Notes under the pieces: generated by a model
What the model saw: the letters and a program-made list of their open reading frames with translations, nothing else
Told to the model about the DNA's origin: nothing
The model's database searches: none
Shown here: piece by piece, positions 44,233 to 49,556 of the stretch
Layout: each line of letters starts with the position of its first letter
Numbering within the stretch: position 1 is the first letter of the stretch
Source of the DNA: an uncultured Nitrososphaerota archaeon
GTDB taxonomy: Archaea; Asgardarchaeota; Njordarchaeia; Njordarchaeales; Panguiarchaeaceae
Reading direction: 5' to 3'
Assembly: GCA_964636085.1 (NCBI GenBank)
Contig: CAZWPQ010000006.1
Span: 14,075 to 65,444 of the forward strand
Length of the DNA stretch: 51,370 nt
Position numbers and translations under genes: made by a program

Positions 44233-44287
44233 ATGATGAGGTTCGGCCTGCGGAGTGCACCACAATGAAGAGGATCTTGAGTGCTGA
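44233..44287 (+). ncRNA. Box C/D guide sRNA targeting tRNA-Leu(CAA) C34 and the pre-tRNA-Met intron
   Basis: ATGATGA-GGTTCGGCCTG-CGGA-GTGCACCACA-ATGAAGA-GGATCTTGAGTG-CTGA. Guides are complementary to 46155-46165 and 46350-46360. Confidence 0.92.
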
Positions 44288-45233: not shown

Positions 45234-45980
45234 CTATCTAACCTTCTTTCTTCTCTTCTCCAAAGCTTCCCTCAACTCAAATATCAACTGCATCCTAGCA
45301 GGCAACGCTGGGGCCCGAGGAGCTTGAGGCGCAGGTGCTGGAGCAGGCTGTTGTGTTGGCGCGGTTGGTGGTGAAGCCCCGCCAACAGATTGTTGCGATT
45401 GTTGCGCAGAGACCACTGATGGCGCGGATGCAGGTGCAGGCTGGGGAACTTGTGTTTGTTGAATTGGTGGCGCAGGAGGGGTAGGGACCGATGGTGCCGA
45501 TACCGAAGGAGAGGGAGGGGCCTGAGGTTGCGGGGAGGCTTGGGGGATTGAAGGCTGAGTTTGCGGCGGAGGAGGTGGAGGTTGTTGAAGAGAAGGCACC
45601 GCCGACTTAGGTTGTGATGAAGAAACAGGTGGGGTAGCCGCTTGTTCGGGTGTAGGAGGAGCAGGGGGTGGTGTTGGAGGTGGCCTGGGGCCCGATACTT
45701 CAACTGTCTCTGCTTTGGATAATTCTGCTGGTTTGGCACCAACCCGTGTACGTTTTTTAAGTACATCTATGGGCTCCTCGCCCAGAACTACTGCTTCCAC
45801 TAAGTCCATTCTTTCTTCTAGATCATCTAGAGTGCTATGAAGTGTATTTATAATATCGATCATCACCATAACGGCTTCTCTCATAAATACATCCAGATCG
45901 CTAACAACAGAAGCCAACATATCATACCTTCGCTTTAGCTCTATTGCCTCCTTCGCCAATTTTTCAATCTTAATAACCAT
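45234..45980 (-). CDS. Coiled-coil / proline-rich protein with C-terminal WH2-like helix
   Basis: N-terminal heptad region, ~130 aa rich in P/Q/A/S including PPPPPP, and terminal ARMQLIFELREALEKRRKKVR. Confidence 0.75.
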   Translation of the reverse strand: MVIKIEKLAKEAIELKRRYDMLASVVSDLDVFMREAVMVMIDIINTLHSTLDDLEERMDLVEAVVLGEEPIDVLKKRTRVGAKPAELSKAETVEVSGPRPPPTPPPAPPTPEQAATPPVSSSQPKSAVPSLQQPPPPPPQTQPSIPQASPQPQAPPSPSVSAPSVPTPPAPPIQQTQVPQPAPASAPSVVSAQQSQQSVGGASPPTAPTQQPAPAPAPQAPRAPALPARMQLIFELREALEKRRKKVR

Positions 45981-46101: not shown

Positions 46102-46203
46102 GCCGCCGTGGCGTAGGGGCTTGCGCGCCGGACTCATATATCCAAGGTGAAACACAGGCCGAACCAAATCCGGAGGTCGCGGGTTCGAGTCCCGCCGGCG
46201 GCA
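46102..46203 (+). tRNA. tRNA-Met(CAT), elongator type, with 29-nt intron at 37/38 (46139-46167)
   Basis: GCCGCCG/CGGCGGC-A, CCGGA-CTCATA^A-TCCGG and T arm GCGGG-TTCGAGT-CCCGC. Confidence 0.9.
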
Positions 46204-46302: not shown

Positions 46303-46401
46303 GCGGGGGTTCCGGAGCGGCTAAACGGGCGGGACAGTCATTCTGCCCGACTCAAGATCCCGTGGCGTATGCCTTCGCGGGTTCAAATCCCGCCCCCCGC
46401 A
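46303..46401 (+). tRNA. tRNA-Leu(CAA) with 16-nt non-canonical intron (about 46336-46351, position 32/33)
   Basis: GCGGGGG/CCCCCGC-A; long variable arm; after splicing CGGGA-CTCAAGA-TCCCG. The CGGG/CCCG helix with AC^A and AC^T bulges gives the right excision. Confidence 0.92.
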
Positions 46402-49466: not shown

Positions 49467-49556
49467 TGGCGCCGGGGGCCGGACTTGAACCGGCGACCTT
49501 CCGGTTAACAGCTTCGTCCACTTGAGTCGGACGCTCTACCACTGAGCTACCCCGGC
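49467..49556 (-). tRNA. tRNA-Asn(GTT) with 15-nt non-canonical intron (49513-49527, position 30/31); CCA encoded
   Basis: GCCGGGG/CCCCGGC-GCCA. The BHB CGTC-CG^A...GACG-AA^G excises to TCCGG-CTGTTAA-CCGGA. Confidence 0.93.

Follow-up and report, generated by a model that had tools for sequence, protein, structure and literature searches.

Does a box C/D sRNA that fits the anticodon loop of one tRNA, and carries a second perfect match to the intron of another, serve both tRNAs? This question is raised by an RNA encoded at positions 44233-44287 of the window, the whole stretch of 51,370 nucleotides of DNA that was analysed. An earlier note had proposed that this single RNA directs methylation of C34 in tRNA-Leu(CAA) with its D guide and, by anchoring its D' guide on the intron of pre-tRNA-Met, also methylates Met C34 before splicing. 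The boxes and the two perfect guide matches on which the proposal was built were all located, and the features concerned are the following.

44233..44287, + strand: box C/D sRNA of the sR47 type, intergenic in an AT-rich spacer, with homologues in all 4 same-genus genomes
44233..44239, + strand: box C, by sequence inspection
44240..44250, + strand: D' guide, putative anchor on the pre-tRNA-Met intron (11/11 match, covariation)
44251..44271, + strand: K-loop, made up of the D' box CGGA, a 10-nt loop and the C' box ATGAAGA
44251-44254, + strand: D' box CGGA, part of the K-loop unit 44251..44271
44265-44271, + strand: C' box ATGAAGA
44272..44283, + strand: D guide for tRNA-Leu(CAA) nucleotide 34 (a target shared with P. 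abyssi sR47) and, putatively, for elongator tRNA-Met C34 too
44284..44287, + strand: box D CTGA
46102..46203, + strand: elongator tRNA-Met(CAU) gene, C34 = 46135, CTCATA 5' exon conserved
46139..46151, + strand: 5' intron module, putatively removed second (BHB enumeration)
46152..46167, + strand: 3' intron module, putatively removed first, holding the D' tag (BHB enumeration)
46155..46165, + strand: D' target (intron tag), 11/11 complement, N+5 = C46159
46221..46293, + strand: tRNA-Val(GAC), lying between the Met and Leu genes of the cluster and targeted by neither guide
46303..46401, + strand: tRNA-Leu(CAA) gene, C34 = 46353
46336..46351, + strand: 16-nt tRNA-Leu(CAA) intron at 32/33, central BHB helix 4/4 in four genus members
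46350..46360, + strand: D target, exact 11-mer

Boxes C, D', C' and D and two guides are present in 44233-44287, as in archaeal box C/D sRNAs; comparison within the genus indicates that the boxes are kept while the flanking DNA diverges, and the CGGA/ATGAAGA variant pair is also found in other sRNAs among about 20 other C/D candidates of this assembly. The genome encodes Nop5 and fibrillarin (Pfam), together with an L7Ae-like ORF recognised by sequence motif only. In an Rfam search of 44233-44287 no family was reached at its gathering score, the best generic C/D match being sR5 with 23 of 40 bits, below gathering. Judged by its sequence, the RNA is confirmed as a real box C/D methylation-guide sRNA of a Njordarchaeota (Asgard) genome, and is the Njordarchaeota orthologue of sR47, not a member of sR49/sR-tMet. 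The proximity to the tRNA cluster that the first description mentioned is incidental: in the same-genus genome G001, 28 kb separate the sRNA and tRNA-Met, and tRNA-Leu(CAA) is on another contig. Nor is the arrangement peculiar to this genome, the sR47-type family being widespread. A sigma-70 promoter scan at the locus was set aside as uninformative for archaea. An ORF with coiled-coil and polyproline features occupies 45234-45980 on the minus strand, in the interval that separates the sRNA gene from the tRNA genes. Elsewhere in this genome (G000), C/D sRNA genes are found 6 nt and ~40 nt after tRNA genes (contig positions C34:14375 and C9:33444), which suggests dicistronic transcripts.

The D guide provides the simpler part of the answer. 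It pairs 11/11 with tRNA-Leu(CAA) at 46350-46360, corresponding to nucleotides 31-41, and the N+5 rule designates C46353, i.e. Leu C34, exactly as for sR47. The complement of this 11-mer occurs in the 2.41-Mb assembly at 46350-46360 and at one non-tRNA site, and the chance expectation of a perfect match within the 8.5-kb tRNA and rRNA target space is 0.0008. The earlier note did not mention that tRNA-Leu(CAA) is itself interrupted by an intron, whose central BHB helix is 4/4 in each of the four genus members that have this gene; in the precursor, the D target begins with two nucleotides of the intron. As this intron ends in AC, its last two nucleotides copying A31-C32, the 11/11 match of the D guide holds for the precursor as well as for the mature tRNA, with the same duplex energy of -18.4 kcal/mol. 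The guide is conserved across all five genus members, with the exception of its 5'-most base. A pattern scan of 400 same-phylum genomes and controls, which admitted both Leu-type and Met-type guides, gave matches in 31 of the 400, 26 of these 31 being of the Leu type, and two matches in controls. Among the matches listed, Leu-type guides were seen (metagenomes, GTDB) in Micrarchaeota, Nitrosopumilaceae, Thermoplasmata, Thermococcus, Bathyarchaeia, Thermoproteales and Asgard archaea; since two stricter Leu-type scans required the guide itself, this is evidence of spread, not of invariance. P. abyssi sR47 methylates C34 of tRNA-Leu(CAA) in vitro (PMC3413156) and, by analogy, the D guide would almost certainly direct 2'-O-methylation of the same nucleotide here. 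Taken alone, this function is ordinary.

The D' guide pairs, likewise over 11 of 11 nucleotides, with the tRNA-Met intron at 46155-46165, placing C46159 at N+5. The only other place in the 2.41-Mb assembly where the complement of the D' 11-mer occurs is this intron segment; the chance expectation in the 8.5-kb tRNA and rRNA target space is 0.006, and the duplex of -23.5 kcal/mol has a shuffle p of 0.001. A second look-alike (10 nt, contig C10) was rejected as a chance match, as it lies antisense within a coding gene. The D' target is confined to the intron, so the RNA is predicted to act on the precursor, like sR49/sR-tMet. Covariation of guide and intron, which had been put forward as a check, was found within the genus, with changes on both sides at D' columns -1, -2, -9 and -10; breaks in the pairing consist of one C.A (G001), one G.A (G004), terminal mismatches and a G.U at N+5 (G003). 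The pairing was also compared with shuffled introns in 15 Asgard, Bathyarchaeia and Thermoplasmata-type genomes that have both parts. Cognate pairing of 9-11 pairs was obtained at p<=0.05 in 13 of these 15 genomes, counts that overstate independence because the genomes are related; it was 11/11 in G000, G039, G144 and G422, and weak in G111 and G091. Guide sequences differ much between lineages, each being matched by its own intron, and the cross matrix of guide and intron energies is block-diagonal by lineage, not strictly by genome.

The position of the tag also fits with docking. In the 13 significant pairs it is found 9-21 nt into the Met intron, 3' of the D site, an order that would be colinear with that of a dual-guide RNP. 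Its partner at N+5 varies between C, U (in a G.U pair) and G, as is expected of an anchor; methylation of intron C46159 is possible, although probably incidental. We thus consider it very probable that the D' guide docks on the intron of unspliced pre-tRNA-Met, with which it appears to have co-evolved, the likely job of the intron being that of a docking site. We found no published description of such a D'-intron anchor, although Clouet-d'Orval 2001, Joardar 2011 and Nolivos 2005 might mention such pairing; literature searches on Asgard C/D tRNA guides and on sR47 with tRNALeu returned nothing. Note also that G039 contains, on contig C356 (L438, L458), two near-copies of the Met anticodon arm with its intron, both of them tagged and separated by 190 nt.

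In this genus, the intron that carries the tag differs in architecture from its counterparts in other lineages. An ARAGORN call of tRNA-Trp for 46102-46203 was rejected, as the CTCATA 5' exon is kept in relatives whose intron ends differ and the genome has a separate Trp gene; the iMet and Ile2 genes are located elsewhere in the genome. The helix required for one-step BHB splicing at 37/38, formed by C32-A35 with intron nucleotides -6 to -3, is 0/4 in four genus members and mostly 3-4/4 in other lineages, and one-step splicing of tRNA-Met at this position is predicted to be impossible in this genus. A two-step route is available in G001 and G004, where both helices are 4/4 (0/200 shuffles each) and the first-step helices covary (TGAG/CTCA against TGGG/CCCA). 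In this genome the same route is modest (3/4 + 4/4, 8/200 shuffles), and in G003, where the tag spans the module junction, it is not significant (48/200 shuffles). The Met intron of this genus is probably composed of two tandem BHB introns, of which the one that carries the tag would be excised first. The best-scoring splice route here (46168 against 46139) would leave U38, not A38, in mature tRNA-Met, and a 3/4 route would leave A; the catalytic subunit of EndA is encoded in this genome. Two further tRNA genes of the window are of note. Positions 14-107 on the plus strand correspond to a tRNA-Arg(UCG)-like gene with an intron in the D-loop, which ARAGORN missed and which has a partial Rfam match at 35-104. 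The ARAGORN tRNA-SeC at 49467-49556 (minus strand) is better read as a tRNA-Asn(GUU) gene that is interrupted at 30/31 by a 15-nt intron, with, by eye, a 4/4 helix; the Leu(CAA) anticodon loop is copied over 7 nt at the start of this intron, where it might act as a decoy for the D guide or be a match by chance.

Docking on pre-tRNA-Met leads to the question of whether Met C34 is methylated. The imperfect D pairing that had been reported on pre-tRNA-Met, with C46135 at N+5, does exist, and it is weak: 5 bp, a 3x2 internal loop and 4 bp, with only five contiguous pairs, -10.2 kcal/mol at 37 C and -1.2 at 75 C, and two mismatches at distances of 2 and 3 nt from the nucleotide to be methylated. 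It ranks 10th among the 44 tRNA gene calls of this genome, and the D guide lacks the perfect complementarity to the pre-Met exon-intron junction that characterises sR49/sR-tMet. As this duplex is no better than background when the anchor is left aside, it is by itself no evidence. Similarly, only 5-6 bp are formed in Thermoplasmata, and the ATC with which the Met introns start is also explicable by BHB pairing.

Other observations bear on the same point from the side of guide repertoires. With a strict pattern, a dedicated Met C34 guide was found neither in the five same-genus assemblies (75-83% complete) nor in the anchor-bearing relatives, including the complete G144; separate wobble guides for nucleotide 34 of tRNA-Trp, Gln and Lys are predicted in this genome (G000 C1:153995, C7:78244 and C15:23373). 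In addition, the D' of the Trp guide pairs with a more 3' part of the Trp precursor. In G020, which has an sR49-type guide, the Met intron starts with GGG and is devoid of the tag; D' gives a p of 0.44 on the genome's own Met intron and pairs instead with the Leu(CAA) and Leu(UAA) introns. D' thus tends, as far as can be predicted, to shift to Leu precursors where a separate Met guide exists. Two Thermoplasmata carry the tag in both the Met and the Leu(UAA) introns, which are the two imperfect D substrates. D' guides of Micrarchaeota and Marsarchaeota have no in-register match to their own Met introns. In those introns (L443-L449, L367, L368) a stretch complementary to the anticodon lies beside K-loop-like boxes, resembling, at the level of predicted motifs, the N. 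equitans intron sRNA (PMC3491384). In the sister family f3, tag-like motifs occur in Met and Leu introns (L043-L045, L007, L010, L500, L501, L507), and four patterns retrieved no guide from seven assemblies despite these motifs; a pattern search also found no guide in four tag-bearing f12 genomes. G007, of the same order, has a C/D RNA (L196) with a perfect guide for C34 of mature tRNA-Met, a SNORD97-like match; it contains a 36-nt internal insert and is followed by further boxes downstream, and tRNA-Met was not found in G007.

What became of the single dual-substrate guide is therefore a mixed outcome. Its dual design and intron anchor stood, upheld by covariation, by the lack of a consistent equal rRNA target and by the failure to find a Met guide in the genus, and from these we infer methylation of Met C34 by this RNA, which we regard as moderately probable. 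The first refuting case named in the note, an equally good rRNA target with no covariation of guide and intron, is thereby not borne out. Against Met methylation stand the weak D-Met duplex, the incompleteness of the assemblies and the tag-bearing lineages in which the patterns retrieved no guide. The alternative that the D' docking is real but serves as a folding chaperone, as a splicing timer or only for methylation of the intron nucleotide, Met C34 being unmodified or modified otherwise, is unlikely, but it deserves serious weight. It accommodates the weak D-Met duplex, the Watson-Crick pairing of the intron N+5 nucleotide in all significant pairs but G003, and the coverage of the first-step BHB by the D' duplex. 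However, it does not account for the presence of the tag in exactly those precursors (Met and Leu UAA) that offer the D guide a half-matching anticodon loop, nor for its departure from the Met intron in the presence of a separate Met guide, and G003 has G.U at N+5.

D' could also be an ordinary rRNA guide for a 23S site near nucleotide 2966 (G001 numbering), the intron match being secondary. As this genome's rRNA is missing from the assembly, that of G001 was used as a proxy, a choice validated by the 9-11 bp sites that it contains for other sRNAs of this genome; both the missing rRNA and the reliance on a proxy leave some room for this reading. The guide of G001/G004 forms 9 pairs (8 Watson-Crick and one G.U) at this site near the 23S 3' end, which in G001, whose Met intron has one mismatch to the guide, scores better than the genome's own intron (-16.9 versus -12.9 kcal/mol); the other three genus guides form 7-8 pairs with wobbles. 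However, the guide of this genome reaches only -16 on the 23S site versus -23.5 on the Met intron, guide changes follow those of the intron and not of the rRNA site, and the latter is missing in G013, other lineages being without an equal 23S match. The scan for alternative D' targets in rRNA, suggested at the outset, found no consistent equal match in the G001 proxy and five other genomes: in 5/5 of these others the own-23S matches have 6-8 contiguous pairs versus 9-11 for the intron, in a comparison restricted to 23S, two of the five loci being partial. We therefore hold the rRNA reading to be very improbable.

Equally hard to sustain is the view that D' mainly gives the RNA a second hold on Leu precursors, at nucleotides 24-32 of the 5' exon, with the Met match as a by-product. 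In three genus members D' forms 8-8.5 of 11 pairs with pre-Leu(CAA), at p 0.04-0.06; in G004 it forms 10 contiguous pairs with Leu(UAA), and the Thermococcus D' pairs with Leu nucleotides 8-15; but here the pre-Leu pairing is weaker than that on the Met intron (-14.4 vs -23.5), and a Leu grip leaves the guide-intron changes on both sides unexplained. It may exist as a secondary site beside Met docking. Least credible of all is that the sRNA helps to splice the Met intron by providing, in trans, the BHB strand that the precursor lacks, a role that the failed one-step helix in all four genus members and the TGAG within the D guide would suit. Such a strand would by motif geometry put the second bulge on the sRNA and not at the 3' splice site, a cis two-step route exists in the covarying 4/4 helices of G001 and G004, and the one-step BHB is normal in other lineages that carry this sRNA.

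The reading that we prefer, a dual-job sRNA acting on Leu C34 through its D guide and on Met C34 via a D' tether to the intron, is as a whole reasonably probable. The sRNA would assemble with L7Ae, Nop5 and fibrillarin, and its D guide would then direct 2'-O-methylation of Leu(CAA) C34 unaided. For the second job, the D' guide would bind the tag in the unspliced pre-tRNA-Met intron, and this tether would hold the weak D duplex on Met nucleotides 31-35 and the start of the intron, allowing C34 to be methylated. The tag would also distinguish elongator tRNA-Met from iMet and Ile2, which have the same anticodon loop and no tag. Since both guide duplexes overlap the BHB splicing helices, the RNP must do its work before any splicing of the transcript, after which the endonuclease would probably remove the 3' module and then the 5' module. 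More tentatively, an old archaeal sR47-type RNP might read tRNA-intron tags via D' and thereby license wobble methylation of imperfect D matches (elongator Met, Leu UAA), the tag passing from one tRNA to another with the gain or loss of dedicated guides. In this genus, the tag placed on its own excisable second intron would gate methylation before the two-step splice, and the Met/Leu dual guide could be a functional forerunner of SNORD97/133.

Why tRNA introns persist in archaea is an open question, for which a covarying docking tag represents a concrete and testable function, different from the known cases in which the intron is the guide. If true, Met methylation would mean that, through its second guide, an archaeal C/D RNP can be made to act on a target that it matches poorly, on a different tRNA species; the use of both guides on tRNA has been described as rare (PMC6009581).

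Comparison with known systems clarifies what is shared and what is not. The 11-nt D target and dual-box layout are common to this RNA and P. abyssi sR47 (PMC3413156), although the Leu substrate here carries a 32/33 intron, unlike that of the sR47 system. The D' guide differs from that of Thermococcales in both sequence and partner: in Thermococcus homologues of sR47 it pairs with Leu nucleotides 8-15, not significantly versus shuffles, whereas here it pairs with the intron of another tRNA. If Met methylation holds, the likeness to sR49/sR-tMet is that of a trans-acting elongator Met C34 guide acting before splicing (PMC2584109). However, the D guide of sR49/sR-tMet is perfect on the Met exon and the GGG intron start and unfit for Leu (PMC2584109), while the one described here is, on the contrary, perfect for Leu and mismatched for Met. 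From a reading of published sequences, the D' of H. volcanii sR-tMet pairs 8/10 with its own Met intron, 10 nt in (PMC2584109), and intron docking may thus be older and wider than the sR47-type family. In pre-tRNA-Trp and N. equitans tRNA-Met, the intron encodes the guide and is needed for wobble ribose methylation (PMC4090602, PMC3491384), whereas here it would only carry the tag on which a separate guide docks. Nested multiple introns are known in archaeal pre-tRNAs, where the last BHB forms only after another intron's removal (PMC3728597); here, by difference, both modules lie at the canonical 37/38 (or 38/39) and the one putatively removed first carries the docking tag. Finally, the Met/Leu pairing in an Asgard lineage parallels human SNORD97 and SCARNA97 (SNORD133), which act on C34 of both elongator tRNA-Met(CAU) and tRNA-Leu(CAA) and engage the tRNA with both D and D' (PMC6601510, PMC10576143). 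Unlike the RNA described here, they are perfect for Met and not for Leu, and their D' targets G22 of an intron-less tRNA (PMC6601510, PMC10576143); the parallel between them is functional only.
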